Shown here piece by piece: positions 36,474-52,976 of a DNA stretch of 64,000 nt (within the stretch, counting starts at the first letter, position 1; every line of letters starts with the position of its first letter). Source of the stretch: a virus. The notes under the pieces were generated by a model. That model saw nothing but the letters and a program-made list of their open reading frames with translations. It had not been told where the DNA came from and did no database searches. The stretch lies in the IMG/VR virus record IMGVR_UViG_3300042447_000691; one strand, 5' to 3'. Both the position numbers and the translations under genes were made by a program.

Positions 36474-39400
36474 ATGGCATGTGTTTCAGGATTAACAAAT
36501 GGGGTATATAGTTATGTAGATTGTTGTGGTAATTTACAGGCGGGAGTTTCATTAGGTGTGGGTATTTGTATTGATGATACGTACTCTGGTAGTGCGTCTG
36601 GCGTTTACATTGCGACAGGACAAACCTGTACACAAAATTGTAATACAGGAATTTTAACATACACTTTCACCGTAACAGGTGTTTGTGATTCTTCTTCGGG
36701 TACCACAGTAATTACACCGTTTGGTGGTGTTTTACCATATACGATAGATAATATCATACCAGGGACTATAAGTGCTCAGACCAGTAACGGGCCTTTCACT
36801 TATACAGGTTTAACGGGGGGTACTTATGTTTTTAGACTTAACGATTTTTTAGGGTTACAAAACAACGAGGCGTTTATAAACGTATTTGTTTCTGAATGTT
36901 TTATTGCTAATATAACAGATACAACAACAACATGTGGGTTGGATAATGGATTTGTATCTGTTAGTGCAACATCAACCAATAGTCCATATAATATTATTCT
37001 TTATAAAGACGATGTGTTATATGATGTCCAACAAACAATAACATTACCTTACATTTTTCCTAGTTTAGGTGCCGGTGAGTACTATGCGACTGTGTTTGAT
37101 TACGGAGCGGTAAGTGCAAATACACCGAACATTTTAATATATAGTTCAACAAGTGTTAACTTTGGTTTATGGAAAGTGAACACATCGACATGTGTGATCA
37201 ACACGGGTAAACTCGCCGTAACAGGATTAACAGGAACCGGACCATTCACGTACTTATGGAGTAACGGAGATACAACACAATTAGTTACGGGATTAACTCA
37301 AGGAACATATAGTTGTACAGTAACCGATAGTATTGGTTGCTCAACCACAGTTTCAGAAACCATAGGACAAGCATTACCTTTAGGAATATTAGGGACAAGT
37401 AGTGTTAGTCCGAGTTGTTTTGCGTCTGATGGTAGTTTAACATATACTGTTTCAGGTGGAACCGCACCGTTTTTCTATTCTGCTAATACGGGACAAGTTG
37501 GGTACACTTTATCTGACACGTTTACATTGACTAATTTAGGAAGTGGTAATTACAACGTATTAATACGAGATGCTAATTTTTGTGAAATAAACGTTTCAGG
37601 ATCACTCAACACTCAAAATGGGTTTTCATTATCTAGTTTAAACATAACCAACTCAATATGTAGTCAAAACAATGGTGAGATATCGGTTTCAATAAACGGA
37701 ACGGGTAGTCAAGATTACCTTTATGTGTTAAGTGCACAGACAGGAGGAACCGTCTATAGTTATTTTGGTACTAACCAAACATTCCAACAAGCGGGGTTAA
37801 CTAATGGTATTTATGATTTAATTATTTCGGGGACGGGATCACCTTGTGCTTATACCACAACCGCAACAATAAACTCACAACAAAAATTCACAATAACGGC
37901 AACCACTTCAGGATCTACTTGTGGACAACCGAACGGTGAAGTCACGGTGACGGTGGGTACGGGATATACTGGATTTATTACTTACGTATTGGAAAACCTC
38001 GATACACCATTAGTTAATGATAGTGTAGTACCATCAACATCATCAAGTGCTGAAACATTCACAAGTTTAATACCAGGAAATTATAGAATAAATGTTATAG
38101 ATATTCAAGGATGTGTTGTTAGTGAGGACTTCTCAATCACGACAACCAACTTTGTTAGTTTTGCGATAAACCCCGTTAATTGTCTTCTTGGTGTTCCGGG
38201 ATATGCAACCGCATCGATATATCAAGGAGAACCACCATTCATGTATTTATGGTCTGACGGGCAAACAGGAACGACGGCAACAGGATTAACCGCAGGTACT
38301 TATAGTTTGGTTGTTACTGATAGTAATACTTGTTCTGACACCAATTATTTTAATATAACGTGTGTTGGTAATAGTATAGAAGGTTACGAACTTTACAACC
38401 TTTGTTCGAATAACTTTAATACCACATCGGGAAATCGTCGAGGAATTTCCGAGATGTTCTTTGAAGGGTTTATGGATGCAACATCAGGATATACTGGGTG
38501 TACGATAGACAATGCTGATTTAACCTGTACAATAACGATAAACGGTAGTGCTTTTACACAGACGTTTGCAAATATCACAAACATTGATGATATTCCTTCA
38601 GACGACTTATGGGTACAATCGATAGAATACTTACTATCATCAACAAGTGCCGTTGGTAGTTATACTATCAACCAATTGAATAACACAATACATATTGAAT
38701 CTAATTGTAGTGGAGACCAAGACCCTATTGGTAATTCTGAATTTAAGTTAGAATTAACCATAGATTATGACTCTACTTGTGCGGGAAGCGCAACAACAAC
38801 ACCTATCGTTGTGTGTTGTGCACCAACTATTGTTGACGTAAACGACCTTGGAAGTGGACTTTACGGGATATACTTCAATTTAAATTGTGGTTCATGTACT
38901 TTAACATCAATACAATACTCAACAGACAGTGGATCAACATGGAGTACTAGTAATACGTCAAGTTGTAGTACATATAGAACAATAGCAACAACGGCAACAA
39001 CGACAGGAACAACATATTTTAGAATGACCAAAAATTGTGGATCAACTATTAGTAACGACTCAAACTCATACATTTACACAACACCAACACCTACCCCTAC
39101 TCCAACACCTACCCCTACTCCAACACCAACACCTACCCCAACACCTGGATTTAGGGCGACTGTGGATACTAGAATTGTTTATGGTTCATTATATGATCCA
39201 TATACTGGTTTGTTTTTACCGGCATCAACCGGAAATAATGTTATAAGATTACCATTTAATGTTATCGGACAAACTAATATCACAAACGGAACTATTTATT
39301 GGGGGGATGGGACAACCTCAACACTATCTTACGCTAACAGAACCCATACATATACAACCGGCCCAGGAATATATCAGATTACTATTACAGTGAATTCTGG

Positions 39401-39890
39401 AGGAGCCTTTAATGGTATAGGAGCTAACCCAATTGCTAATGATAGATTAAAATTTTTATCAATAGATGAGTGGGGAGATTTACAATTTGATGGGGGTTAT
39501 ACAAATTCTTTCTTTGGATTCCACAACCTATCATTGTCAGCAACAACAGATAGTCCACAACTTTATGATGGCACTCCTGATGATTCATTAGCTTTGTTAT
39601 TTGAGAACACATTTACAGGATTTACAAATATTAATAATATTGGATCTTGGAATGTTAGGGATATTACCAACATGGGGGCATTTTTAGCTAATGGAGGTGT
39701 TTACGTATCGGGGTTAAACAGTACAAATTATGATAGTTTATTAAACGGATGGGCATCATATGGGTCATCTTTACAAAATGGTGTTATTTGTGACTTTGGT
39801 TCTTCTAAATATGGACTATCGGCAGCAGCATCAAGAACGTACCTAACAGGTACCAAAGGTTGGCTAATAAACGATGGTGGTCCTGTATAA
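36474..39890 (+). CDS. Fibre/adhesin-like virion protein: Cys-rich N-terminus, SprB-like repeats, (TP)11 linker, PKD-like and DUF285/BspA-like C-terminus
   Basis: GTGPFTYLWSNGDTTQLVTGLTQGTYSCTVTDSIGC and GEPPFMYLWSDGQTGTTATGLTAGTYSLVVTD repeats; IYWGDG..HTY; IGSWNVRDITNMG. Confidence 0.75.
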   Translation: MACVSGLTNGVYSYVDCCGNLQAGVSLGVGICIDDTYSGSASGVYIATGQTCTQNCNTGILTYTFTVTGVCDSSSGTTVITPFGGVLPYTIDNIIPGTISAQTSNGPFTYTGLTGGTYVFRLNDFLGLQNNEAFINVFVSECFIANITDTTTTCGLDNGFVSVSATSTNSPYNIILYKDDVLYDVQQTITLPYIFPSLGAGEYYATVFDYGAVSANTPNILIYSSTSVNFGLWKVNTSTCVINTGKLAVTGLTGTGPFTYLWSNGDTTQLVTGLTQGTYSCTVTDSIGCSTTVSETIGQALPLGILGTSSVSPSCFASDGSLTYTVSGGTAPFFYSANTGQVGYTLSDTFTLTNLGSGNYNVLIRDANFCEINVSGSLNTQNGFSLSSLNITNSICSQNNGEISVSINGTGSQDYLYVLSAQTGGTVYSYFGTNQTFQQAGLTNGIYDLIISGTGSPCAYTTTATINSQQKFTITATTSGSTCGQPNGEVTVTVGTGYTGFITYVLENLDTPLVNDSVVPSTSSSAETFTSLIPGNYRINVIDIQGCVVSEDFSITTTNFVSFAINPVNCLLGVPGYATASIYQGEPPFMYLWSDGQTGTTATGLTAGTYSLVVTDSNTCSDTNYFNITCVGNSIEGYELYNLCSNNFNTTSGNRRGISEMFFEGFMDATSGYTGCTIDNADLTCTITINGSAFTQTFANITNIDDIPSDDLWVQSIEYLLSSTSAVGSYTINQLNNTIHIESNCSGDQDPIGNSEFKLELTIDYDSTCAGSATTTPIVVCCAPTIVDVNDLGSGLYGIYFNLNCGSCTLTSIQYSTDSGSTWSTSNTSSCSTYRTIATTATTTGTTYFRMTKNCGSTISNDSNSYIYTTPTPTPTPTPTPTPTPTPTPTPGFRATVDTRIVYGSLYDPYTGLFLPASTGNNVIRLPFNVIGQTNITNGTIYWGDGTTSTLSYANRTHTYTTGPGIYQITITVNSGGAFNGIGANPIANDRLKFLSIDEWGDLQFDGGYTNSFFGFHNLSLSATTDSPQLYDGTPDDSLALLFENTFTGFTNINNIGSWNVRDITNMGAFLANGGVYVSGLNSTNYDSLLNGWASYGSSLQNGVICDFGSSKYGLSAAASRTYLTGTKGWLINDGGPV
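39081..39146 (+). repeat. (Thr-Pro)11 coding microsatellite
   Basis: Degenerate ACN-CCN hexamer repeat. Confidence 0.95.
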
Positions 39891-40177
39891 TGGCATATTC
39901 AATAGACATAACAGGCGTTTCAGGTGGTACCGCACCGATTAGTTTCTACGCTTGTGACGAATATGGGAACAATTGTTCATTTTTAGGGATTGCTCCTGGT
40001 GTTTATATATTACCGGCATTATTACAAACGGCAACAACCATTATGATAAAATCTATTGATAGTGGCGGGTGTACGTTCTTTAAAATAATATCTTGTGACG
40101 TTGAGACTTTCTTAATTTTAACAGAACTTGGAGATTCTTTAACCACAGAAGATGGTGACACTTTAGTTTTTGAATAA
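39890..40177 (+). CDS. Small Cys-containing Ig/SprB-like protein (paralogue family A); probable start at 39890
   Basis: TAATG coupling to the upstream stop; shares I.....G..P....C and KxIDxxxC with 40193 and 48300. Confidence 0.7.
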   Translation: MAYSIDITGVSGGTAPISFYACDEYGNNCSFLGIAPGVYILPALLQTATTIMIKSIDSGGCTFFKIISCDVETFLILTELGDSLTTEDGDTLVFE

Positions 40178-40192
40178 AAAGTATTTATCTAT

Positions 40193-40480
40193 ATGATAGT
40201 TAATATAACAGGAGACACAGGAGGGTTAGAACCATACGACATTTTTTTATGTGATCCAACAAATACGGGTTGTTTCTACGTTTCAGGATTAACAAACATA
40301 CCTGCAACGGTTGTTATTAATACGGAAAGTTATTTTCCAAACGAAAATTACCTTTATTTAAGAATTATTGATACAAATGGATGTGTTTACTCGACAGTTA
40401 TTGATTGTGCGGGTCAAAAGGCGTTCCAAAATGATATATACTTTAATTTTATGGACGGGTTTGGTTATATTTTCCAATAA
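40193..40480 (+). CDS. Small Cys-containing protein (paralogue family A)
   Basis: GLEPYDIFLC...RIIDTNGC; aromatic/acidic C-terminal tail. Confidence 0.7.
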   Translation: MIVNITGDTGGLEPYDIFLCDPTNTGCFYVSGLTNIPATVVINTESYFPNENYLYLRIIDTNGCVYSTVIDCAGQKAFQNDIYFNFMDGFGYIFQ

Positions 40481-40501
40481 ATAATATTTATTAAATAAAC
40501 T

Positions 40502-43500
40502 ATGCCAACATATCAATTATTAACAGACAGGTCTTTAGCCCAATCATCGGCAATAACGCCGACGACACTCATACATATTGTTTATACTGGTGACCCATCT
40601 CAAAATATTGCGGGATCATCATATAAGGCCGAACTTGGACAACTTGCCGGATTATTTAGTGGTACGTCAGATACTTTTGTTACAGGAGGAACCTATTCTG
40701 CTGGTACAATAACATTTATAAACAGTAGCGGCGGAACTTTTGATGTAACCGGATTAACTACAGGTGACACAACGACAATTACAGGAGCAACTAGTGTTGG
40801 TACGGGTGTTACAATATTTGATAGTGTAATTGATAGGGATATAAAAATAAATTCTATCACGGGAGACACTTTAGAAAAGATAACTACCACATTATTTTCT
40901 AACACTATTGAGGTCGGAATTAATGAACAAAATTTAGATTTGTGGTCTTTAGTTGTACAAGGTAATCGATTAATAAGTGGAGGTGTCTCGTATGTTAGTG
41001 GATTAACTTTCGAAACGAGTGCTTTGGAATACATTATTGGTGGTACAATATACGACATACCACTACCAACCACACTTGTTTTGAGTAGTGGTGATCCTGT
41101 TTTTAATAGAATCGATGTTATTGTTGCTGATGTGAGTGGAAATACTTCGGTAGTGGGGGGTACTCCGTCCGCAAATCCAGAAAAACCTGATATTGACGAA
41201 GAAACTCAAGTTGAAGTGACGTTTGTATCAATACCTGCAAATGGTACGACACCAGATATAGATTTATTATTATTATATAACGAAAATGTGGGGCCACCAA
41301 CTGAATGGTCATTTGGTGCAGTTGGTTTACAACCAACAAGAATAAGTGGATCATCAACTGACCAAACATATAGTGGTTTAACAGCTATTAGAGTTAGTGG
41401 GGTTACCGGAACATTTACTACGTCGTTCAGATTGACAGGATCAACAACGGTAGACACAAACCAATTCGCAACATTACAGTTTGCGATAAGAAATTTATCA
41501 GCAAACACAACATCAAGTCAAATACGGTTGGGTTTTAGAACCACTGGAAACACACAGAACGGTAATTATGTTTATATGAATGCTGCTGGTTCTTCGGGGT
41601 ATGTTCAATATAGTAGTACGAATACGTCCTCTTGGCAGTTAATATCAATACCTTTATGGAGATTTTACTTAACTAACACAAACGTTCAAGTTTTAGATGT
41701 TTCATTTAATAGTCCGAACGCTAGGTACTATTTTGATATGATACAATTAGTTGAGGGATTAGCCTCGTCTCCACCTACTAACGCATGGACAACAATTAAA
41801 GGTGATGGATCGACGACGATTATCGCCCCTAACCCTAACGCCACTTTAACTATATCAGGTGGTACAAACATCGGTTCTTTTATATCTGGAGCCTCAACAG
41901 TTGTTTTAAACTTGGACAATAATATTAATTTAAATGGTGTTACAGCGTCAACAATATCCGCAACCACATATCAAAATTTACCTTCAAGTACCTTTACTGG
42001 TGGAACTGTAAGTGGCACAACTAACTTTACAAATGGGTTAAGTGCAAACACAATATCAGCAACAACATATCAGAATTTACCAACAGATATTAGAGTTACA
42101 GGTGGAACATACTCCGCCGGAACTATCTCATTCACTAACAACACCGGTGGGACTTTTAATGTAACCGGATTAACCACAGGATCAACATCAACCGTAAGTG
42201 GTAATTTTTTACCATTAAGTGGTGGGACAGTAACAGGAGGAACCATTTTCCAAAGCGGATTAACCGCAACAACAATATCCGCAACAACATATTTAAACTT
42301 ACCATTAGACATAAGAGTGACTGGTGGAACGTATTCTGCAGGTACAACAACATTTACTAACAACACGGGAGGCACATTTAACGTAACGGGTTTTACTACC
42401 GGATCAACATCATCAGTAAGTGGGGAGTATTTACCTTTAAGTGGTGGGACCGTAAGTGGAGCAACAAACTTCACAAATGGGTTAACTGCAAACACAATGT
42501 CCGCTAGTACTTTATTTGTAAATGGAGTAAAAATTACCGGAGATACATATGTTACAGGACTAACATTCAATACATTAAATTATAATTTAACGTTAGGAAG
42601 AAACGATGGTGTTACATTTACTGATAATTTAGGTGTTTTAGCTTCAGATAATACAATAACAGGAGGAACGTATAACTCATTAACAGGTGTCGGTACGTTT
42701 ACTAATAACACTGGAGGAACATTTGATGTTTCAGGGTTTTTAGTTGGATACACAGATGTTGAAGTTACGGGATCAACATACAACAATAACACCTTTACGT
42801 TTACAAATTCAACGGGAGGTACTTTTGATGTATTATTCAATACTGTCACAGGATTAACGTCAACAGGATTGGTTTCATCTAATACTATATCTGCAACAAC
42901 ATATTTAAACTTACCATTAGACATAAGGGTGACTGGTGGAACGTATTCTGCAGGTACAACAACATTTACGAACAACACAGGAGGAACTTTTAACGTAACA
43001 GGATTCACTACAGGTACTACCTCATCAGTAAGTGGGGATTATTTACCTTTAAGTGGGGGGACTGTAAGTGGGTCAACAACCTTCACTAACGGGTTAACGG
43101 CAAATACAATAAGTGCTACAACATATTTAAACATATCCGTACCAACACTGAACCAAGTTCTAATTGAAGGTAATCAAACTTTAGGTGAAGATATCGTTTT
43201 AAATGATATGGATAGTATTATCAATACCGGTAATACTATCGGAATACAATTTAAAACCGGTGCGACGATGTACCAATATGCTACGGATAATATAGATAAA
43301 ACAACTGAAATAAGTTTAGATAAAGAATTTATAACATTAAACGCTACAAATAATGATGATGGATATTATGCTACAATTCAACTTGATGTAAGTAATAACG
43401 TGATGTTTGAAATTGTTGGAGACCCCGCTTTAAATAATTTTAGTAGAACGACAAGACAACTTGGTGTTATAAATGATTATGTTGGTAATTCAACAAATAC

Positions 43501-45376
43501 AGACTATTCAAGTGTAAATCAAAAGGATGATCAAATATCTAGTATAATCGTTTCAGGTAGTAGTGAAGTAACTAAATGGAAATTAAACAATAATCAAATA
43601 TCAGGTTCAACAACAAATGGTGTAAATACAACCCTTATTTCTTTAACCCCTAATAATTTTAGAGTAGAAACGGATAATAATCAAAATATATTTTTTGTTG
43701 ATGGTACAAATAACAGGGTAGGTATATCTACAAACACACCGACAGAAAAATTAACAGTTAGTGGTAATACAAATATTACAGGAACATTAAACATTGGTAC
43801 AATTGGGGCTGGAACACCTTTAATTAATTTAGGGTTGGATTCTAGTGGGAATGTCGTTACAGGTACAACAGGTGGAGGAACTTTTACCGGAGGAACAGTT
43901 AATGGGGCGACAAATTTTACAAATGGATTAACCGCGAATACAATTTCTGCTACCACATATCAAAACCTACCATTAGATATCCGTATAACAGGAGCAACAT
44001 ATTCTAACAACACTTTCACACATAGAAATAACACCGGAGGAACGTACACCGTTTTATTTAACACGGTTACGGGTTTGACGGTAAACGGTCAGTTATCTGT
44101 TACAGGTAATACTTCTTTACGAGGGTTAACTGCAACAACAATATCCGCTACAACATACCAAAATCTACCAACGGATATTCGTATAACAGGTGCTACTTAT
44201 TCTAACAACACTTTTACACATAGAAATAATACAGGTGGCACATACACGGTTTTATTTAATACGGTTACAGGGTTAACAATTAATGGTAATTTAACAGTTA
44301 CTGGTAGTACTAATCTAAAAACATTAACGGCAACAACGACAACAATTAATGGTAACTTAACTGTTACTGGTAGTACTTTTAATTTTGACGGAACTACCTT
44401 AGACCTGAAAAAAAATAGTACAAACCCAAATCTAATTATAAGTGACACGGGCAATACTTTAAACGACCCGTATATTAGGTTTGTTGCTACATCCGCAGGA
44501 ACACCAACATATTCGATGGGTGTTGATAAATCGGCGTCAAACTCATTTAATGTGTCATATAGAACAGACACATCAGCATCACCAAGTAATACGGGTTTAT
44601 ATTTACAATTCACAACAGGGTTTACTCTTAACTTACCTACCATTAGTAATAGCCCTACCCTTGCTTTAGGTCTTAGTGGAATGACATTTATTATTGCTAG
44701 TAATGCGGCACAACTTAAAATATTCGATGGGTCGAGTCGAAATAGAAATATAGAGTTTACTCAATATGCGACATATGGTACTTGGCTTGCTAACAATGGT
44801 GGATCTGCTGGTAGTCAACACTTTATTTTAAATAATGTGACTTCAGGTGAGACATTATTTGGTGGATTACAAAAATCAGATGAAGTATCCATTTTTCACA
44901 GTGGTAGAACGGAAGTAGACGGTGGATTTGGAGTTTTAGTTAGAGGTAATTTAAAGGTAACCGGTACTACAAGTGTTGGTACTGTTATTGGCACGGGAGC
45001 GGCATTAAGTAGAGATGCAACAACCGGTATTTTGGCTGTGGTAGTATCAGATGAAAGATTAAAACAAAACGTTGAGCAAATACCAAATGCATTAAATATA
45101 GTTAATAATTTACGTGGAGTTTACTATAATTGGAAAGATAATGAAGACTTCCAATCAGGTGATAGTTCAAGACAATTTGGTTTTATTGCACAAGAAGTGG
45201 AAACTTATTTACCTGAGGCGGTAATCTTAAGCGGTAGTAAAGATTATAAAACTGTTAAGTATTCTGAAATAACTTCAGTTTTAGTTGAAGCTATTAAAGA
45301 ACAACAACAAATGATAGAAGATCTAAAAGTGGAAATTACAAATTTAAAACTAAGGGTTACTAATTTAGAATCTTAA
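40502..45376 (+). CDS. Long tail fibre/spike with a CBM-like domain, Thr/Gly-rich repeats and a C-terminal intramolecular chaperone (peptidase S74)
   Basis: SDERLKQNV...LRGVYYNW...GFIAQEVE.YLPEAV...VKYSEI..LVEAIKEQQ coiled coil; WQLISIPLWRF..YYFDMIQL resembles a galactose-binding/CBM11-like fold. Confidence 0.88.
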   Translation: MPTYQLLTDRSLAQSSAITPTTLIHIVYTGDPSQNIAGSSYKAELGQLAGLFSGTSDTFVTGGTYSAGTITFINSSGGTFDVTGLTTGDTTTITGATSVGTGVTIFDSVIDRDIKINSITGDTLEKITTTLFSNTIEVGINEQNLDLWSLVVQGNRLISGGVSYVSGLTFETSALEYIIGGTIYDIPLPTTLVLSSGDPVFNRIDVIVADVSGNTSVVGGTPSANPEKPDIDEETQVEVTFVSIPANGTTPDIDLLLLYNENVGPPTEWSFGAVGLQPTRISGSSTDQTYSGLTAIRVSGVTGTFTTSFRLTGSTTVDTNQFATLQFAIRNLSANTTSSQIRLGFRTTGNTQNGNYVYMNAAGSSGYVQYSSTNTSSWQLISIPLWRFYLTNTNVQVLDVSFNSPNARYYFDMIQLVEGLASSPPTNAWTTIKGDGSTTIIAPNPNATLTISGGTNIGSFISGASTVVLNLDNNINLNGVTASTISATTYQNLPSSTFTGGTVSGTTNFTNGLSANTISATTYQNLPTDIRVTGGTYSAGTISFTNNTGGTFNVTGLTTGSTSTVSGNFLPLSGGTVTGGTIFQSGLTATTISATTYLNLPLDIRVTGGTYSAGTTTFTNNTGGTFNVTGFTTGSTSSVSGEYLPLSGGTVSGATNFTNGLTANTMSASTLFVNGVKITGDTYVTGLTFNTLNYNLTLGRNDGVTFTDNLGVLASDNTITGGTYNSLTGVGTFTNNTGGTFDVSGFLVGYTDVEVTGSTYNNNTFTFTNSTGGTFDVLFNTVTGLTSTGLVSSNTISATTYLNLPLDIRVTGGTYSAGTTTFTNNTGGTFNVTGFTTGTTSSVSGDYLPLSGGTVSGSTTFTNGLTANTISATTYLNISVPTLNQVLIEGNQTLGEDIVLNDMDSIINTGNTIGIQFKTGATMYQYATDNIDKTTEISLDKEFITLNATNNDDGYYATIQLDVSNNVMFEIVGDPALNNFSRTTRQLGVINDYVGNSTNTDYSSVNQKDDQISSIIVSGSSEVTKWKLNNNQISGSTTNGVNTTLISLTPNNFRVETDNNQNIFFVDGTNNRVGISTNTPTEKLTVSGNTNITGTLNIGTIGAGTPLINLGLDSSGNVVTGTTGGGTFTGGTVNGATNFTNGLTANTISATTYQNLPLDIRITGATYSNNTFTHRNNTGGTYTVLFNTVTGLTVNGQLSVTGNTSLRGLTATTISATTYQNLPTDIRITGATYSNNTFTHRNNTGGTYTVLFNTVTGLTINGNLTVTGSTNLKTLTATTTTINGNLTVTGSTFNFDGTTLDLKKNSTNPNLIISDTGNTLNDPYIRFVATSAGTPTYSMGVDKSASNSFNVSYRTDTSASPSNTGLYLQFTTGFTLNLPTISNSPTLALGLSGMTFIIASNAAQLKIFDGSSRNRNIEFTQYATYGTWLANNGGSAGSQHFILNNVTSGETLFGGLQKSDEVSIFHSGRTEVDGGFGVLVRGNLKVTGTTSVGTVIGTGAALSRDATTGILAVVVSDERLKQNVEQIPNALNIVNNLRGVYYNWKDNEDFQSGDSSRQFGFIAQEVETYLPEAVILSGSKDYKTVKYSEITSVLVEAIKEQQQMIEDLKVEITNLKLRVTNLES
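41945..44290 (+). repeat. Intragenic repeats in the tail fibre: seven TISATTY[QL]N units; long pairs at 42281/42893 (612-nt period) and 43940/44138 (198-nt period)
   Basis: Direct comparison of the protein and DNA sequence. Confidence 0.9.
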
Positions 45377-45416
45377 ATTTTGTTTACAAAAGACCATAAG
45401 AGACTATTTTTAGTCT

Positions 45417-46616
45417 ATGAAAATTTTTGTACAAATAGCGTCATACAGAGATCCCGAACTATTACCAACCATTAGAGATTGTATTAATAAAGCAAAATAC
45501 CCCGAAAATATAACATTTGGAATTTGTTGGCAACATGATGATACCGAATCAATGGAGGAATTTGCAAATGACCCAAGATTTAAAATATTAGATTACCATT
45601 GGAGTTGGAGTAAAGGTCTTTGTTGGGCTCGTAGTGAAATTCAAAAACTATGGGATGGTGAAGAATACACTATGCAATTAGATTCACATATGCGTTTTGA
45701 AAAACAATGGGATGTAGAATTGATTGAAATGATGAATATGGTTGACTCAGAAAAACCAATAATTTCTTCATACCCTGGTATGTATAGACCAAGTGATAAT
45801 CAATTACTAAATGTTGAACCATATAAAATGGTTGCGAATAATTTCACACCAAGCGGAACTATAATGTTTTTTCCAACCCCAATCGAGAATTGGCAAGATT
45901 TAAAAAAACCGATTAGGTCTAGATTTGTTGCGGGTGGTTATTTTTTTACAATAGGAAAACACTGTGAAGAATATAAGTATGATCCTAATTTATACTTTGC
46001 TGGCGATGAGATTAGTTTAGCAATTAGATCATACACTTTAGGTTATGATTTTTTTCACCCACATAAAACAATTATTTGGCACGAATATACAAGAGAGGGT
46101 AAAACAAAACATTGGACCGATTTTAATGAAGATAACAAAAAATCTGGTGTTGTTGAAAAACAATGGTCAGAAATGGACAACGAGGCAAAAAAAAGACTCA
46201 GACATATGTTACAAGAAGAGGATAACAATATTGATTTAGGTGAATATGGTTTAGGAAGTGTAAGAACACATAAAGAGTATGAAGATTATGCTGGAATAAA
46301 CTTTAAATATAAAAAACTACACCCGAAAACATTAAAAGGTATTGAGCCCCCCATTAATGATTACAGCGAGTGGTACCTAAAAGACGAAAAAGAATATGAA
46401 TATGAATTTGACATTCCATACACGGAAGACTTTAAATTCATTTACATCGCTATTGAAAATGAAAATGGTGACGTGTTATATAGAAAAGATTTATTAGAAT
46501 ACCAAGAAAAATTAAAAATACAATTTAAAACCTTAGAGATACCATACAAATGGGTTTATTGGGTTTACAATAATACAGATAATTGGATAAATAGAAAAGA
46601 TTTCATAATCAATTGA
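45417..46616 (+). CDS. Glycosyltransferase, GT60 / Pfam GlcNAc-like (polypeptide or Skp1 GlcNAc-transferase-like, GT-A fold)
   Basis: IFVQIASYRD, GICWQ, GLCWARS, MQLDSHMRF (DxH), YFAGDEISLAIRSYTLGYDFFHP, WHEY. Confidence 0.85.
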   Translation: MKIFVQIASYRDPELLPTIRDCINKAKYPENITFGICWQHDDTESMEEFANDPRFKILDYHWSWSKGLCWARSEIQKLWDGEEYTMQLDSHMRFEKQWDVELIEMMNMVDSEKPIISSYPGMYRPSDNQLLNVEPYKMVANNFTPSGTIMFFPTPIENWQDLKKPIRSRFVAGGYFFTIGKHCEEYKYDPNLYFAGDEISLAIRSYTLGYDFFHPHKTIIWHEYTREGKTKHWTDFNEDNKKSGVVEKQWSEMDNEAKKRLRHMLQEEDNNIDLGEYGLGSVRTHKEYEDYAGINFKYKKLHPKTLKGIEPPINDYSEWYLKDEKEYEYEFDIPYTEDFKFIYIAIENENGDVLYRKDLLEYQEKLKIQFKTLEIPYKWVYWVYNNTDNWINRKDFIIN

Positions 46617-46673
46617 TAAAAACAATTAATAAAATGAAATTCCTGTTATTTATATAAAAAACTTAAAAATTGA

Positions 46674-48284
46674 ATGGCTGACATAATATTAAGTAGTTGT
46701 TGTTACAATCAAATATCATATAGTGCAACGAGTTGGCTTGGGTTACAAACTTTAGGTACTGTTTTTAATGTGACCGGAGATACGGTTATAGTTGAAGGGT
46801 GCTATACTGTTGTTACCGCAACAACACCAACAATAGTAACAACATCGTTAGTTGGTACCGCAACTGTGGTTACAGGGTGTACCGATCCGTCATGTTATTC
46901 GTGTTGTGACGACACTATATGTATCGAACTATTGGGTAGTACGTATTCGGCAATAACCGGAACATACCAAATTGACGGTAGTTATAATGGTCATATATAT
47001 TTTACAGGAGGAACAAATCCTGGATACGTTTATTTTGACACAACAAAATGGTGCTTAAGTTCATCTTTAGGTGGTGTTTGTGAGTTTTACGGATCAAGCC
47101 CAACGACAAGTGAATGTCCTGATTTTGCTCCAAGCATTCAATCTTCAGGTATTTGTCCAACTCCGACACCCACACCAACAGACCCTTGTTCTATTTTAGA
47201 TTTTGATATTTTATTGGAGTGTGATATACCAACCCCAACTCCGACCCCTACGCCAACTCCAACACCTACACCTACACCCACACCAACCCCTACGGTTGAC
47301 CCTTGTTCTGGGTTTAGTGCTAATTTATCATACAGTGAGGTTACACCGACCCCTACACCAACTCCGACTCCTACACCAACACCGACACCGACAGGAATAC
47401 CTGTTACGGGAGAAAGTGTTACATTTGTTGTTGATCAGGGTTATTTTGTTTGTCCTACCGTTAAGAAATTAGTCGACTGTCAGACGACCGATATATATTA
47501 CGTATCTGACAATTTATTATTTAGTGGATCACAAATAACCACAGGAACGACGTTTGTTGTTACGTTAAGTGATTTTAATTCTGACCAAATACAGTGTGTT
47601 ACATACACCGAAAATGTTGGAGGATCACCAAATAGGGTTGTGGTTGAAATAATAGAGTTGATATCAGGTTGTACTGGATGTAATTTACCGACACCAACCC
47701 CTACACCAACACCAACCCCTACACCAACACCAACGGCAACCCCCACACCAACATCATATCCAGTCAACACTTCTTTTGTGTTCACGTCGTGTACAAACAA
47801 TAGTATGATAATACAAGTAGCATACCCACCATCAAATGTGGTGGTTGACGATATACTAAAAACTACTGGTGGAACTTGTTATCGATATATTGGTAATTTT
47901 GTTGGTTATGCACCACCAAGTGGATTTATAATTGCAAACACAAATATATTTACATCATCAGCACAGACGGTTTACGATTCTTGTGTTGAGTGTAATACGC
48001 CTGTAATAACAGGAACCACATATAAAACGTGGGAAGCTAAAGGGGAATATTCTGTTTCTTGCCCTGTCTGTCAATTAACTAACTTCGGGGCAGCAATCAC
48101 ATTCTACACTTCATCTGCCAACACAATAATGCAAACGGGAGTTTATATTTATAAAGATATTAATTTAACAAAACCAGTAACTATTGATTATGTACAATAC
48201 GGAACTAAAATCTATAGGGTAGATACATATGGTATGGTAACAGAATATTGTACATTAAACGGAAATTGTAAAAAAATAACATAA
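46674..48284 (+). CDS. Cys-rich virion/fibre protein with four Pro-Thr tracts
   Basis: Many Cys pairs and PT runs; no catalytic motif seen; TATTTAT upstream. Confidence 0.7.
47157..47753 (+). repeat. Four (Pro-Thr)n coding tracts (starting near 47157, 47229, 47343 and 47688)
   Basis: Degenerate CCN-ACN hexamer runs of about 4 to 11 units. Confidence 0.95.
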
Positions 48285-48299
48285 AATATTTATTAAATT

Positions 48300-48584
48300 A
48301 TGTCATATCAGATAACAATAAACTCAATAACTAGCGGAACGTCACCATACGATGTATGGATATGTAATAGTTGTTCAGGTACATGTGTTTATGTTGCAAC
48401 AACAAATACGGTACCATACACCTTTACGTTACCCACAGTATACGAAACATATCCAACATATGTTGTAAAAATTATTGATAATAATAATTGTGTTTTTTGT
48501 GAGGTTGCATCGACAACATATAAACAATTTGAAGACGGGGAATATTTTGAATTCCAAGACGGAGAAGAATACCAATTTGAATAA
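48300..48584 (+). CDS. Small Cys-containing protein (paralogue family A)
   Basis: GTSPYDVWIC...KIIDNNNC; tail KQFEDGEYFEFQDGEEYQFE resembles the tail of 40193. Confidence 0.7.
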   Translation: MSYQITINSITSGTSPYDVWICNSCSGTCVYVATTNTVPYTFTLPTVYETYPTYVVKIIDNNNCVFCEVASTTYKQFEDGEYFEFQDGEEYQFE

Positions 48585-48603
48585 TATTTAAAAAAATATA
48601 AAA

Positions 48604-49125
48604 ATGGCAAGATTAACAGATAAAACATTCGCCCAATCAACGGCAATTACACCAACAACCCTTATACATATTGTGTATACGGGAGATCCGTCACAGAATC
48701 CGGCTGGATCATCATATAAAGTAGAGTTAAATCAAATTGCACCAACTATTGGTGGATATCAATATTATAGTGAAATTACGGTATCTGATTCTGAAATTCT
48801 CACTTTAAATAGTTTACCCGTTAATATCCTACCAGCACCAGGATCTAATAAATATTATGATTTTAAGGTATATTTTGAATATGTGTACGGAACATCAAGT
48901 TACTCAGCAAATCCAATTTTTCTTATTGATAATGCATCAAATACTGTTACCAAACAGTTCGACATACAGGGAACGGCAGATGTGATAATGGTGAGTTCTA
49001 TGGATATATTGAATTATATGCCAGTTAACTCTAATTTACGATTGGCCGATCTTGTATCTAACCCAACTGCAGGTGATGGAACTATGAAAATAAAAATATA
49101 CTATAATATAGTTGATTTTGGATAA
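48604..49125 (+). CDS. Short fibre-like protein sharing its N-terminal anchor with the 40502 tail fibre
   Basis: 33/39 identical residues to 40520-40636. Confidence 0.75.
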   Translation: MARLTDKTFAQSTAITPTTLIHIVYTGDPSQNPAGSSYKVELNQIAPTIGGYQYYSEITVSDSEILTLNSLPVNILPAPGSNKYYDFKVYFEYVYGTSSYSANPIFLIDNASNTVTKQFDIQGTADVIMVSSMDILNYMPVNSNLRLADLVSNPTAGDGTMKIKIYYNIVDFG

Positions 49126-49128
49126 AAT

Positions 49129-50763
49129 ATGGCAGATTTAAGTGGAAATAGTTGTAATATAATAACACTCTTACCTTTAGGTATAGATTGTGATACCATA
49201 AATGCGTCAACACCTGACTCATCAAATGGTTATATGGCCATTTTAATAACAGGTGGGACACCACCTTATAATGTATCTTGGAGTAACGGAGCACAAGGTA
49301 CTTACATAACCAATTTAATTCCTGGTAATTACACGGCAACAGTTGTTGATTATTATGGTGATTTTAGTGCGACAACAACATGTGAGGTCGGATATGAAAG
49401 TTTTTATTTAGAAAAATTTGAAAAATGTGTATTAATATCCGCAGTAACACCACAATACATATATTATATCGCATCAACACCATCATTGTTTACCCCTAAT
49501 AAAGTGTACAAATTAACAACACAAACGGGATGTTGGACAAGTTTAGGTTTGGAGTTAAATACGGGTCAAACGTATAGTAATTCAGTTGCCGTTAAATCTT
49601 CAGGACCATATAACTCATGTTTTGCTTGTATCGCAAATATACCTGCACCACAACCATATTCCGGACCACTTTGTTTAACAAGATACATACAACCGACAGC
49701 CAGTCTGACGACGTTCTATAGTGGTGATACTATAAATAATTACCCTTCTTGGACAAGTAGTACACAAACAATCTATTACGATAACACAAATACAAGATGG
49801 ACTGTTAGTGGTTGGACAACACCTAACGTACCATACTTACAAAATCCTAATATACCACCTGTTGGGTCTTGGACACTACCAGGGTCATTCATATCTAACG
49901 TTATTGTTGCTACGGGAGTTTGTACGACATCACCTTTACAGATAACAGTTCAAACACAAAATCCGGCATGTTCAACAAGTTTAGGATCGGCAACTATTAA
50001 TGTAGTTGGAGGAACACCACCTTACATATATTCGTTAGACAATATTAATTTCACATCAACTAACCTTTTAACGGGTCTGGCTGCAGGACCAAAAACTGTG
50101 TATGTTAAAGATTCTTCACCATTACAAAATGTAGGGAATCAAGGGTTTTCAATAATCCCAGTTCAAAATTACACGAACTATCAGATAAATGTTAACTTTA
50201 CCACTCCAGGACTACAATCAACCACCACAACGAATCAAACCGCCAATTCCACCACATTATCACAAGACACTAATTTCAATATAAGTCTAACACCAAACAC
50301 CCCGTTTAATCAACCTTCAACAGTTAAGTTTGATTTAATTTTTAATGTTGCTACTACCGCATATACAAATTCCACGGACGCTCCGATAATTGCAAACACG
50401 ATAAATGCGAGTGGAAGTGTTGGATCAACTTTACCTGGCGGTATATCATCAATACCTGTTACACAAACAGTAAGTAGACCGTTGTGTATTGCCGGTGACA
50501 TAATTACAACAACATATACGATCTCATACTTAAATTGTTTATTGACGGACACAACATCAAATATTACAGGAACGATAAACCAATATATAAGTGAAATATG
50601 CGCAACTAGTAATTTTTGTATATTAAAGGCGTATTCCGATGTTACATTAACCGTTAAAAAAATATCATTAACCCCGTTAAATTGTCAGGGTATTGATTCG
50701 ACAATAATTAATAGAACCGCAAGTGCGGTAAAATTTGGACCAATTTGTCCGTTACTTTCTTAA
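49129..50763 (+). CDS. SprB-repeat-containing Cys-rich virion protein
   Basis: ITGGTPPYNVSWSNG....NLIPGNYTATVVD and VGGTPPYIYSLDN....TGLAAG..TVYVKD. Confidence 0.7.
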   Translation: MADLSGNSCNIITLLPLGIDCDTINASTPDSSNGYMAILITGGTPPYNVSWSNGAQGTYITNLIPGNYTATVVDYYGDFSATTTCEVGYESFYLEKFEKCVLISAVTPQYIYYIASTPSLFTPNKVYKLTTQTGCWTSLGLELNTGQTYSNSVAVKSSGPYNSCFACIANIPAPQPYSGPLCLTRYIQPTASLTTFYSGDTINNYPSWTSSTQTIYYDNTNTRWTVSGWTTPNVPYLQNPNIPPVGSWTLPGSFISNVIVATGVCTTSPLQITVQTQNPACSTSLGSATINVVGGTPPYIYSLDNINFTSTNLLTGLAAGPKTVYVKDSSPLQNVGNQGFSIIPVQNYTNYQINVNFTTPGLQSTTTTNQTANSTTLSQDTNFNISLTPNTPFNQPSTVKFDLIFNVATTAYTNSTDAPIIANTINASGSVGSTLPGGISSIPVTQTVSRPLCIAGDIITTTYTISYLNCLLTDTTSNITGTINQYISEICATSNFCILKAYSDVTLTVKKISLTPLNCQGIDSTIINRTASAVKFGPICPLLS

Positions 50764-50783
50764 ACCATGAATATTTATAAAAT

Positions 50784-52976
50784 ATGTCTTACATAATTAA
50801 AAATACCTCAGCACTCATTAATACACAATTAACCGATGCTGCAAGAAAAAGGTTATCGCAAGGTAAATTCGATATCGCGTATTTCCAAGTTGGAGATAGT
50901 GAGGTTTGTTATAACTGTGTTAATGGAATGAATTTGGTTGAGTCCAACGTTCTAAGTCCTCAGTATAACTCTCAAAATACGGCACCGATTCCTGACAGAA
51001 ATAGAATGAACATCAAATATCCACTTTTTGTGGACTCAACATCTGGTAGTACTTTTGGTATTCCGTATGATGATTCTTATATTGATGATGTTTTTAATAG
51101 TGCGGCACCAAGGGGATTCTTTACTGGTAGTACGGTATTCACTTCTTCGGCATACACTTTAAATCCTAACTTTATAATTGATAATACGACCTTATCATCA
51201 GGAACTACAATAACGCTGTCTTCATCTTCTGTTAATTTAACCGTATCTGGTACCGTAAGTGAGGGTGACTTTATCACTATATTTACAAACGGAAACATAT
51301 CACCAATATCAGGTAACTCACCTATGTTTACCTATAAGATAGTTGGAATAACCGGAGACACCTCAACAGCAACGACGGTAACAATACAAGTCGATAGGCA
51401 GGTGCCTGATTTTAGTAATATGGGTATTACGGGTAATTCGTCTTGTTTATTTTATCCGCAAAAAATGACGGATTTATACGATACGTTCACACCACAACCA
51501 TATTGGGCAACTGACGTGTTTAATTTTGAAACAAATTGTGACGTATCACAACGTAACGTGGCGATATGGAATATGAATTCACCTTGGACCGAATCACCGG
51601 CTGGTGTTTTTAACAACTTAAATCAAGATTATAACTTATATGAGTCAACAGGGTATACAGGATCTAAAGAGTATTTTGGATATAACCTAAATGGTGGTCA
51701 AACTGATACCGACTCAACATATTATTACAACTCACTATCCGATAAGATTACTGTTAATCCTATTGATCAAAAAGCGATTGGAATCGTACACTACACAAAT
51801 CAGGCGATAGATAATTTTTATGGTGAAAAATTTGCCTTTCAAGAATACGATCCGACAAATCCCGGAAATACAGGACAAGCAAGAAACTTCAAAATCAACC
51901 TTCCTTGGTTGATGTGGCACAAAAATCAAAATGCGACCATAGGTGAGGAGTTCTATGTTGACCCATCAGGATTTACTTCATTAAACCTTTTTGAACCACA
52001 TTATATGGAATCAACTAGGGATTTAAACTTTAACGCACCTGGTCTTAGATATTACCATTTGTGGGATACACATGCAAACACTAACGGAATTCCAAATAGA
52101 GTAGGTAAGGTATATCCTGACCAAAAAATGGTTATATTTGATGATGATGAGATTGTTGCAACACTAAACAACAAATCTAATAGGTCGTGGACTTTACCGG
52201 CACCACAATTAGGTCTGATTTTACCAAACACCTTATGTGGTGGTGATGGTGGAACAACCGGATTATTATCGGGTAATAGTGAAAGTCTTTTCGTTACTTA
52301 TAGATTTAACAATAGTGCCTTTACCAATTCGTTACATTGTAATTACTACTCAAGAATAAGTGGTTACGATCAAACAATGGTACAAGGATCTACAGACGTA
52401 TTAGTTAGGTTTGGAAACGAATTTCCATTTTTAAGTCCTCAAGTGGGGACCTCACTAAGTGGGTTTAGTGCAAATAACATAAAAATATTAGCACAAAAGG
52501 TTAGTAGTGGAACAACAAGACCTAACCCTATTGCATGGAAAGAAATAGATATTTCCTCACAATTATCGGCAACGACAGTTGGTGGGTATTTAACGTCAAC
52601 AGGATTAACTGCAACCACAATACAATTAACTGAGACAATGTATAATTCTGCGCCTACATATAGATTGGACAATTACATTAATTTACCATCATTAAATCAA
52701 ACAGGAACTACGTTTAATTTTGGTGGAGAGTTTTATTTTTATGGAACGATACAAACAGACATTCAAGCAACAATATACGTTATGAACTATCTTTGTAATT
52801 TAGGACAAACACAGTTCTTCGACTCATCGAACCCTACTTGGAGTAAAACTAAGACGCCACACGTCACGGAAGTTGCTCTTTACAACGCGGATAAAGAACT
52901 TATGGTTATTTCTAAGATACAATCACCCGAAAAAAGACAGGGAATACAACAGTATCCTATTAAATTAGATTTTTAA
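50784..52976 (+). CDS. Putative baseplate / fibre-attachment structural protein
   Basis: N-terminal LTDAARKRL..G.FDIAYFQVGDSE and C-terminal VTEVALYN...ELMVISK, a split fold reminiscent of tail-fibre/baseplate attachment domains. Confidence 0.45.
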   Translation: MSYIIKNTSALINTQLTDAARKRLSQGKFDIAYFQVGDSEVCYNCVNGMNLVESNVLSPQYNSQNTAPIPDRNRMNIKYPLFVDSTSGSTFGIPYDDSYIDDVFNSAAPRGFFTGSTVFTSSAYTLNPNFIIDNTTLSSGTTITLSSSSVNLTVSGTVSEGDFITIFTNGNISPISGNSPMFTYKIVGITGDTSTATTVTIQVDRQVPDFSNMGITGNSSCLFYPQKMTDLYDTFTPQPYWATDVFNFETNCDVSQRNVAIWNMNSPWTESPAGVFNNLNQDYNLYESTGYTGSKEYFGYNLNGGQTDTDSTYYYNSLSDKITVNPIDQKAIGIVHYTNQAIDNFYGEKFAFQEYDPTNPGNTGQARNFKINLPWLMWHKNQNATIGEEFYVDPSGFTSLNLFEPHYMESTRDLNFNAPGLRYYHLWDTHANTNGIPNRVGKVYPDQKMVIFDDDEIVATLNNKSNRSWTLPAPQLGLILPNTLCGGDGGTTGLLSGNSESLFVTYRFNNSAFTNSLHCNYYSRISGYDQTMVQGSTDVLVRFGNEFPFLSPQVGTSLSGFSANNIKILAQKVSSGTTRPNPIAWKEIDISSQLSATTVGGYLTSTGLTATTIQLTETMYNSAPTYRLDNYINLPSLNQTGTTFNFGGEFYFYGTIQTDIQATIYVMNYLCNLGQTQFFDSSNPTWSKTKTPHVTEVALYNADKELMVISKIQSPEKRQGIQQYPIKLDF

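Follow-up and report, generated by a model that had tools for sequence, protein, structure and literature searches.

A GT60-type glycosyltransferase gene among proline-threonine-rich tail fibre genes of a large freshwater phage: a candidate system for O-glycosylation of fibre linkers

The stretch of viral DNA studied here (IMG/VR record IMGVR_UViG_3300042447_000691; 64,000 nucleotides, called the window below) is part of the genome of a large freshwater phage with low GC content (about 32%). It contains a glycosyltransferase (GT) gene, whose product is called P0001, inside a tail fibre module in which two proteins carry tracts of proline-threonine (PT) dipeptides, and an earlier sequence-only reading had taken this arrangement for a system that O-GlcNAcylates the linkers of the phage's own fibres. 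The features of the module are collected in Table 1. The structural block runs from gp25-like and gp6-like baseplate wedge genes (21.3-23.6 kb) to about 53 kb, and replication genes are found on both sides of it, encoding a single-stranded DNA-binding protein, a UvsX-like recombinase, an exonuclease, a DnaB-like helicase, a ribonucleotide reductase, a primase and an SbcC-like protein. From 36474 to 52976, every gene in the list of open reading frames (ORFs) is on the plus strand and the gaps are short. The GT gene starts 40 bp past the gene of the S74 fibre and ends 57 bp ahead of the gene of the Cys-rich PT protein on the same strand, so that the enzyme does lie where it had been placed, after the Thr-rich S74 fibre and before the Cys-rich protein with its four PT tracts. 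The motifs IASYRD, DSHMRF, GDEISL and WHEY, by which the enzyme had been recognised, are all present in its ORF, and the (TP)11 linker of the upstream fibre was recovered at its position by a six-frame scan. The GT had also been called the only recognisable enzyme of the cluster, and this holds for Pfam and PHROG with one exception, the self-cleaving S74 chaperone domain.

Table 1. Features of the fibre module in the window
Feature	Coordinates	Strand	Evidence
SprB-repeat fibre, 1138 aa, 15.5% Thr, 2.9% Cys; candidate acceptor	36474..39890	+	Pfam SprB E 2.7e-7
(TP)11 tract within the SprB-repeat fibre	39081..39146	+	six-frame scan
Two small conserved ORFs, 105 aa and 95 aa, between the fibres	39860..40480	+	ORF list
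Thr-rich (18.2%) tail fibre, 1624 aa, with C-terminal S74 intramolecular-chaperone domain	40502..45376	+	Pfam Peptidase_S74 E 7e-18; PHROG tail-fibre families; composition
GT60-type (PF11397) GT-A glycosyltransferase, 399 aa (P0001)	45417..46616	+	Pfam E 7.9e-67; AlphaFold2; Foldseek; VIA
Cys-rich (5.2%) PT protein, 536 aa, 18.7% Thr, beta domains joined by four PT tracts	46674..48284	+	translation, composition
Four PT tracts of the 536-aa protein	47157-47180, 47229-47294, 47343-47393, 47688-47735	+	six-frame scan
Three more module genes: 94 aa, 173 aa and a 544-aa SprB-repeat protein	48300..50763	+	Pfam SprB E 4e-7; phrog_26672 virion structural protein; synteny in relatives
Conserved 730-aa protein closing the module	50784..52976	+	18 related IMG/VR loci, 63-98% identity

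Outside the tracts listed in Table 1, nowhere in the window did the six-frame scan detect three or more PT dipeptides in a row. In the tracts, Pro and Thr are each encoded by three to four synonymous codons (for instance, the (TP)11 tract uses ACA, ACC and ACT together with CCA and CCT), and this mixed codon use indicates that they are not simple DNA microsatellites. For the 536-aa PT protein, 41 orthologues adjoin a GT60 gene. Among orthologues of about 50% identity, with a mean column identity of 53%, the PT columns are invariant. The AlphaFold2 (AF2) model of this protein shows the PT tracts as coil of low predicted confidence (pLDDT) between beta domains, in a model whose overall pLDDT is only 57. 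Orthologues of the SprB-repeat fibre in related phages retain a PT tract as well. Threonine makes up 18% of the S74 fibre and 10-15% of other module proteins. Besides, some orthologues of the PT protein (L030, L011, L012, L015 and L017; alignment A3, columns 209-315 and 469-530) have extra Cys-rich domains within or right after the PT tracts, which, judged from the alignment, look like module borders at which new domains are taken up.

To assign the enzyme, we compared P0001 with profile and structure databases. It matches the Pfam family PF11397 ("GlcNAc") with an E value of 7.9e-67 and 226.6 bits (cut-off 21), in two stretches that cover profile positions 2-46 and 98-350 and skip about 47-97, and it matches phrog_24687 ("glycosyltransferase") with an E value of 6e-98. 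The AF2 model, built on 36 homologues, has a pLDDT of 94.2 and a Rossmann-like beta/alpha/beta core; a GT-A catalytic domain (about residues 1-320) is followed by a C-terminal six-strand beta domain (about 322-399), and this domain of about 80 residues is also present in bacterial homologues. No signal peptide or membrane segment is visible in P0001. A Foldseek search of the PDB with the model returned polypeptide N-acetylgalactosaminyltransferases (ppGalNAc-Ts) for all of the best 50 or so matches, with E 1e-11 for the closest. In the VIA all-against-representatives structure search, GalNAc-T1 scored Z 22.1 (273 aa, 3.3 A) and the Toxoplasma enzyme TgGalNAc-T3 scored Z 20.3, the next GT-A family, that of GT2-type enzymes, reached at most Z 16.0, and the alignments of P0001 ended at residue 321 or so. 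Residues D89, H91 and H222 are invariant across the 36 homologues, and the arrangement D89-x-H91 plus H222 fits the DxH plus His metal site of GT27-type enzymes. The likeness to GT27 is structural only, as P0001 has no match to Pfam Glycos_transf_2 or to a GT27-type profile, and PDB sequence searches with P0001 alone and with the 36-sequence profile gave nothing meaningful. NCBIfam gave no match for the GT or its neighbours.

The characterised GT60 members in CAZy are polypeptide alpha-GlcNAc transferases, namely Dictyostelium Gnt1 (acting on Skp1 Hyp143) and Gnt2/modB, and the OGNTs of Trypanosoma cruzi (acting on mucin Thr). From its profile match and modelled fold, the enzyme belongs to the GT60 family, as had been claimed from its motifs, and it looks most like the starters of polypeptide O-glycans, with the GT27 ppGalNAc-Ts as the nearest fold. 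The family is large (4474 clusters at 50% identity); PF11397 was found at no fewer than 585 loci among the bacterial species genomes scanned, and it occurs also in other uncultured tailed phages and in giant viruses. A complex prediction that paired the GT with PT-protein residues 150-262 scored 0.00, which counts neither way on binding.

Phage contigs from freshwater and other environments, the longest about 290 kb, contain close homologues of the GT (66-96% identity), in loci that retain the order of fibre, GT and PT protein. The clade was also sampled through the 730-aa protein as anchor rather than through the GT, which yielded 18 IMG/VR loci, 16 of which have a GT60 gene in the module. 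A phage-encoded GT beside structural genes, the arrangement known from virion self-glycosylation systems of phages, is therefore present in the window and in these 16 clade members. The GT60 in the module slot is of two kinds, with either 76-95% or 36-40% identity to P0001, and a FastTree family tree, made of phage and bacterial members only and unreliable for the long-branch rows L312, L314 and L316, sets the two kinds apart by bacterial clades. Two deeply diverged lineages in one slot imply that the slot was either filled anew or held by selection, and this speaks for a function connected with the module. The 36-40% kind is found at L404, L406-L413, L415 and L417, where the 730-aa protein is still 66-70% identical to that of the window, in contrast to L400, L401, L405 and L416; on these alignments it looks as if one GT60 lineage was replaced by another within a conserved fibre module. 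Four contigs from metagenome-assembled genomes (L345, L353, L385 and L399, labelled Melainabacteria, Alphaproteobacteria, Saprospiraceae and "bacterium") are short, have 29-39% GC and carry a GT60 nested in or next to the phage clade, and they are probably mis-binned phage contigs.

The link between GT60 and PT tracts extends beyond this clade. A PT-tract ORF lies within 10 kb in nearly all of about 50 phage loci with a homologue, the exceptions being L050, two short contigs and two loci that were cut round distant copies. In at least five arrangements (the window clade, L029, L044, L048 and L313) the immediately adjacent ORF, 43-116 bp away, is PT-rich, and these ORFs are mutually unrelated by BLAST; altogether the PT-tract proteins near GT60 genes fall into at least 18 BLAST-unrelated families. 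In a 229-kb relative (G016), all 26 (PT)4 windows are within 3.5 kb of the GT. Bacterial loci were inspected with 10-kb flanks, and 15 of 80 contain a PT-tract ORF, in every case within 5 kb of the GT.

We also carried out the reverse test, in which IMG/VR viral records were pulled solely by a (PT)6 DNA pattern and then scanned for PF11397. As the pattern CCNACN also catches (VG)n on the other strand, the 68 records were sorted by frame into 57 PT, 3 VG and 8 other records. It turned out that PF11397 is present in 10 of the 57 true PT-tract records and in none of 78 control-repeat records, 21 of which were newly added with a P[KE]6 pattern that is largely the reverse complement of (GS)6. Before sorting, the counts were 11 of 68 against 0 of 57 (Fisher p = 0.0009), although such p-values overstate independence, since the sampled records are mutually related and the control sets consist of different phage types. 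Every one of the five PT-pattern records that are at least 100 kb long has a PF11397 match, with one of them (G027) really being a (VG)n record. In that record a divergent GT60-like gene (339 aa, E 1e-21) adjoins the gene of a 735-aa fibre-like protein (L312:10333-12540, minus strand) that has long (VG)n tracts and, by eye, a C-terminal Hint/intein-like segment; DNA that encodes PT reads as (VG)n on its reverse complement.

Family, modelled fold, position in the fibre module and co-occurrence with PT tracts all agree with the reading that the phage GT O-glycosylates the PT linkers of its own fibre proteins, and on this indirect evidence we consider it the best-supported reading, with about an even chance of being right. 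Several observations weigh against it. In addition to the kinship of the sampled records mentioned above, 47 of the 57 PT-tract viral records have no GT60, and two of the 18 anchor-sampled loci (G127 and G128), fragments of 10-18% completeness, keep PT tracts while their contigs contain no GT60. As PT genes are grouped in fibre modules, direct adjacency to the GT exceeds chance only modestly when the module location is taken into account. Phage copies also occur far from any PT gene, at about 9 kb in L006 and in the Xanthomonas jumbo phage XacN1, at 30 kb in G008 and at 73 kb in G056, and L050 has none in its flank. Among the bacterial loci, 65 of 80 have no nearby PT tract. Acidobacteriaceae homologues (35-40% identity over the full length) adjoin genes for a GT9 heptosyltransferase, an HldE-like kinase/adenylyltransferase, an epimerase and a DUF4254 protein, while Verrucomicrobial homologues (51% identity; sister to the GT clade of the window) adjoin GT32-like, sulfotransferase and GT25 genes, and judged by gene content both settings look like oligosaccharide or lipopolysaccharide (LPS) core clusters. 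The sequence-only reading had proposed as a check the co-occurrence and synteny of the GT with PT-repeat genes, which was seen in the reverse test and in the unrelated PT neighbours but fails for the several phage homologues at 9-73 kb. Likewise, its proposal of fibre O-GlcNAcylation gains from the family, the fibre-module position and the PT co-occurrence, and loses from the LPS-core-like bacterial settings and the distant phage copies.

Some of these loci have features of their own. In the chromosome of Tunturiibacter lichenicola (L340:6270-11957), the GT60 gene is flanked by genes for an epimerase, an HldE-like protein with PfkB and cytidylyltransferase parts, a GT9 heptosyltransferase and a DUF4254 protein. 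Taking the bacterial loci together, the GT60 gene most often has Ferritin_2 directly next to it (10 of 105 neighbour ORFs). At L050:9992-12476, two tandem GT60 paralogues lie amid enzyme-sized ORFs of 260-330 aa with no PT-tract gene in 19 kb, and this cluster is perhaps an island of glycan-synthesis genes, not a fibre module. In a 215-kb phage (L006:11403-11954, minus strand), a GT60 gene (68% identity) is outside the fibre genes and adjoins a gene for a dTDP-sugar isomerase (RmlC-like), with the PT-rich ORF 9 kb away after the gene of a 1506-aa VWA protein.

The settings of the bacterial copies raise an alternative, in which the GT acts on a non-protein glycan. During infection it would add N-acetylhexosamine (HexNAc) to an envelope glycan of the host, be it the LPS core, a lipid-linked oligosaccharide or some other, which might for example prevent superinfection or keep progeny from sticking to debris. 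The gene would then lie in the fibre module for reasons of receptor biology and not of fibre modification. Besides the bacterial neighbours, this alternative is favoured by phage copies elsewhere, which adjoin HtrL_YibB, GT32-like, weak GT8-like and dTDP-sugar isomerase genes or, in XacN1, have GT9 and carbamoyltransferase genes nearby, as is typical of glycan-building sets, and by the tandem L050 copies in an enzyme-rich cluster without a PT gene. These glycan-gene settings, however, fit the elongation of a protein O-glycan equally well as the synthesis of a glycan or LPS core. To our knowledge, none of the characterised GT60 enzymes uses a lipid or LPS acceptor, and the fold is distinctly nearer to ppGalNAc-Ts than to GT2 or LPS-type GT-A enzymes. 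In the module of the window, Pfam and PHROG show no other glycan-building gene, flippase or membrane protein, and at 21-53 kb there is no gene for core-sugar biosynthesis or for another core transferase. Grouping with LPS-modifying GTs, which had been named as a finding that would speak against the fibre proposal, is suggested in part, by the LPS-core-like settings in Acidobacteriaceae and by nothing of the kind in the window. As a non-protein acceptor would also leave the enrichment of PT genes across unrelated contexts unexplained, we regard this alternative as unlikely.

A protein acceptor is pointed to by fusions in bacteria. The five top-scoring family representatives are bacterial proteins in which 3-4 GT60 domains are fused to 2-oxoglutarate-Fe(II) domains (PF13640) of the prolyl-4-hydroxylase (P4H) type, echoing the protist PhyA-Gnt1 pair. 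These proteins (P0125, P0126, P0127, P0132 and P0134) have 1641-2461 aa, with the GT60 domains in tandem and one or two P4H-type domains; an AhpC/TSA domain is a further part of P0125 and P0127, and P0125 is encoded amid housekeeping genes (L462:10001-17386). The fusions are at the same time an argument that the GT glycosylates virion proteins at sites other than PT-tract Thr, either hydroxyproline as in the Skp1-Gnt1 route or other Ser and Thr residues, such as those of the S74 fibre, with the PT tracts being common module linkers. The Thr-rich S74 fibre and the other module proteins would offer many such sites, and the modest excess of PT adjacency given the module location is in keeping with them. 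Set against this, PF13640 is present in only one of five GT60-bearing phage records and is absent from G016 and from the window ORFs scanned, and this rarity makes direct modification of Thr likelier than the hydroxyproline route. The PT tracts are, moreover, the most conserved columns of the neighbouring PT protein, and records picked by a PT tract alone are enriched for GT60. We therefore find acceptor sites outside the PT tracts rather improbable.

The cultured phage XacN1 offers a comparable case. Its ORF334 is a homologue of P0001 (36% identity over 98% of the length), and its PT tracts are in the giant 3313-aa ORF325, downstream of baseplate wedge genes. XacN1 virions have at least two Schiff-positive glycoprotein bands in periodic acid-Schiff (PAS) staining, with the bands assigned to no protein or GT (PMC5852040). 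XacN1 thus resembles the phage of the window in having a GT60 homologue and PT tracts in a fibre-region or baseplate-region protein, and its virion glycoproteins lend some support to the sequence-only reading. Unlike in the window, some 9 kb separate ORF334 from the PT protein, and its surroundings contain replication, carbamoyltransferase and GT9 genes. The nearness of DNA polymerase and RNase H genes to this homologue would suit another explanation, that the GT glycosylates hydroxymethylated bases of the phage DNA to evade restriction, as the T-even glucosyltransferases do; in a review, phage-encoded GTs are described as often modifying DNA. PF00303, the thymidylate-synthase-family pyrimidine hydroxymethylase, is however absent from all five GT60-bearing phage records, one of which is 100% complete, the GT of the window is inside the late fibre genes and not among replication genes, and fold and family point to polypeptide transferases. 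DNA glycosylation is accordingly a highly improbable explanation.

Compared with the protist GT60 enzymes, the phage enzyme shares PF11397 and a soluble GT-A domain with DxH, and its proposed acceptors are likewise Pro/Thr-rich and mucin-like, whereas it is encoded by a phage among tail fibre genes and has the extra C-terminal beta domain of about 80 aa; the kinship is judged by the Pfam profile alone. The GT27 ppGalNAc-Ts, which start mucin-type glycans in animals and Toxoplasma, are the nearest solved structures and share the DxH motif and the order of a catalytic and then a C-terminal accessory domain. They differ in having only 12-16% identity, and P0001 has no ricin-type lectin domain (no Pfam match to Ricin_B_lectin) and is not a Golgi type II membrane protein. 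In mycobacteriophages, as summarised in PMC12619734 with reference to Freeman et al. 2023, phage GTs encoded near structural genes place glycans on C-terminal extensions of capsid and tail-tube subunits. As far as that summary goes, the systems are alike in having a phage-encoded GT beside structural genes, with self-modification of virion proteins being a proposal for the phage of the window; they are unlike in that its candidate sites are internal PT linkers of fibres, in a low-GC freshwater phage and with a GT60 enzyme. Linkers of the (PT)n kind between folded domains also resemble those of secreted glycoside hydrolases from bacteria and fungi. In such hydrolases, for example those of Cellulomonas fimi and Trichoderma, (PT)n linkers are O-glycosylated, which extends them and protects them from proteases, and they are mannosylated outside the cytoplasm by membrane enzymes of the protein O-mannosyltransferase (PMT) type. 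For the phage, in contrast, a soluble cytoplasmic GT-A enzyme is proposed.

Glycosylation of the PT linkers might proceed as follows. The GT would be a soluble, cytoplasmic, Mn-dependent GT-A enzyme made along with the late fibre genes. The donor would be host UDP-HexNAc, most likely UDP-GlcNAc, with both sugar and linkage presumed, and the first sugar would be added to Thr hydroxyls of exposed PT linkers, either while the fibre and baseplate-appendage proteins assemble or earlier. The first candidate acceptor is the Cys-rich protein of 536 aa encoded next to the GT, and the SprB-repeat fibre is the next. Folded domains would thereby be connected by short, glycosylated, mucin-like stalks, and the benefit may be a linker that is extended, resistant to proteases or shielded, much as the sequence-only reading had supposed stiffening, protease resistance or antigenic masking. 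As to expression, a scan for promoters and terminators gave 89 hits against 79.5 +/- 8.7 in shuffled sequence, which is no excess, so we infer co-transcription of the GT with its neighbours from strand and spacing alone. At 46640-46673, in the 57-bp gap before the PT-protein gene, there is an AT-rich stretch, TTATTTATATAAAAAAC, which resembles a T4-type late promoter, by resemblance only. The two small ORFs between the fibres keep the same position in related loci and have no Pfam or PHROG match.

A broader version of the proposal is that cytoplasmic mucin-type O-glycosylation is widespread in viruses infecting bacteria and in some bacteria, with GT60 enzymes taking (Pro-Thr)n for an acceptor signal that can be moved between proteins. 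A structural protein would then be glycosylated whenever it gains a PT linker, and large aquatic phages would build glycan-sheathed stalks, sometimes elongated by GT32-, GT8- or HtrL-type enzymes. We put this forward as a tentative idea that is somewhat more likely to be wrong than right.

In conclusion, a full-text literature search found no earlier description of a phage GT60/PT-linker glycosylation system, and the system is best classed as a combination of known kinds, phage virion glycosylation and GT60 polypeptide transferases. So far, most experimental demonstrations of self-glycosylated phage virions concern actinophages. If the proposal is true, it would extend virion self-glycosylation to abundant large freshwater phages and would give a first function to thousands of prokaryotic and viral GT60 members. 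The (PT)n tract would be a simple acceptor tag for cytoplasmic O-glycosylation, of possible use in bacterial glyco-engineering. It would also bear on the mechanics of fibres, on their resistance to proteases and on the recognition of phages by grazers or host defences.

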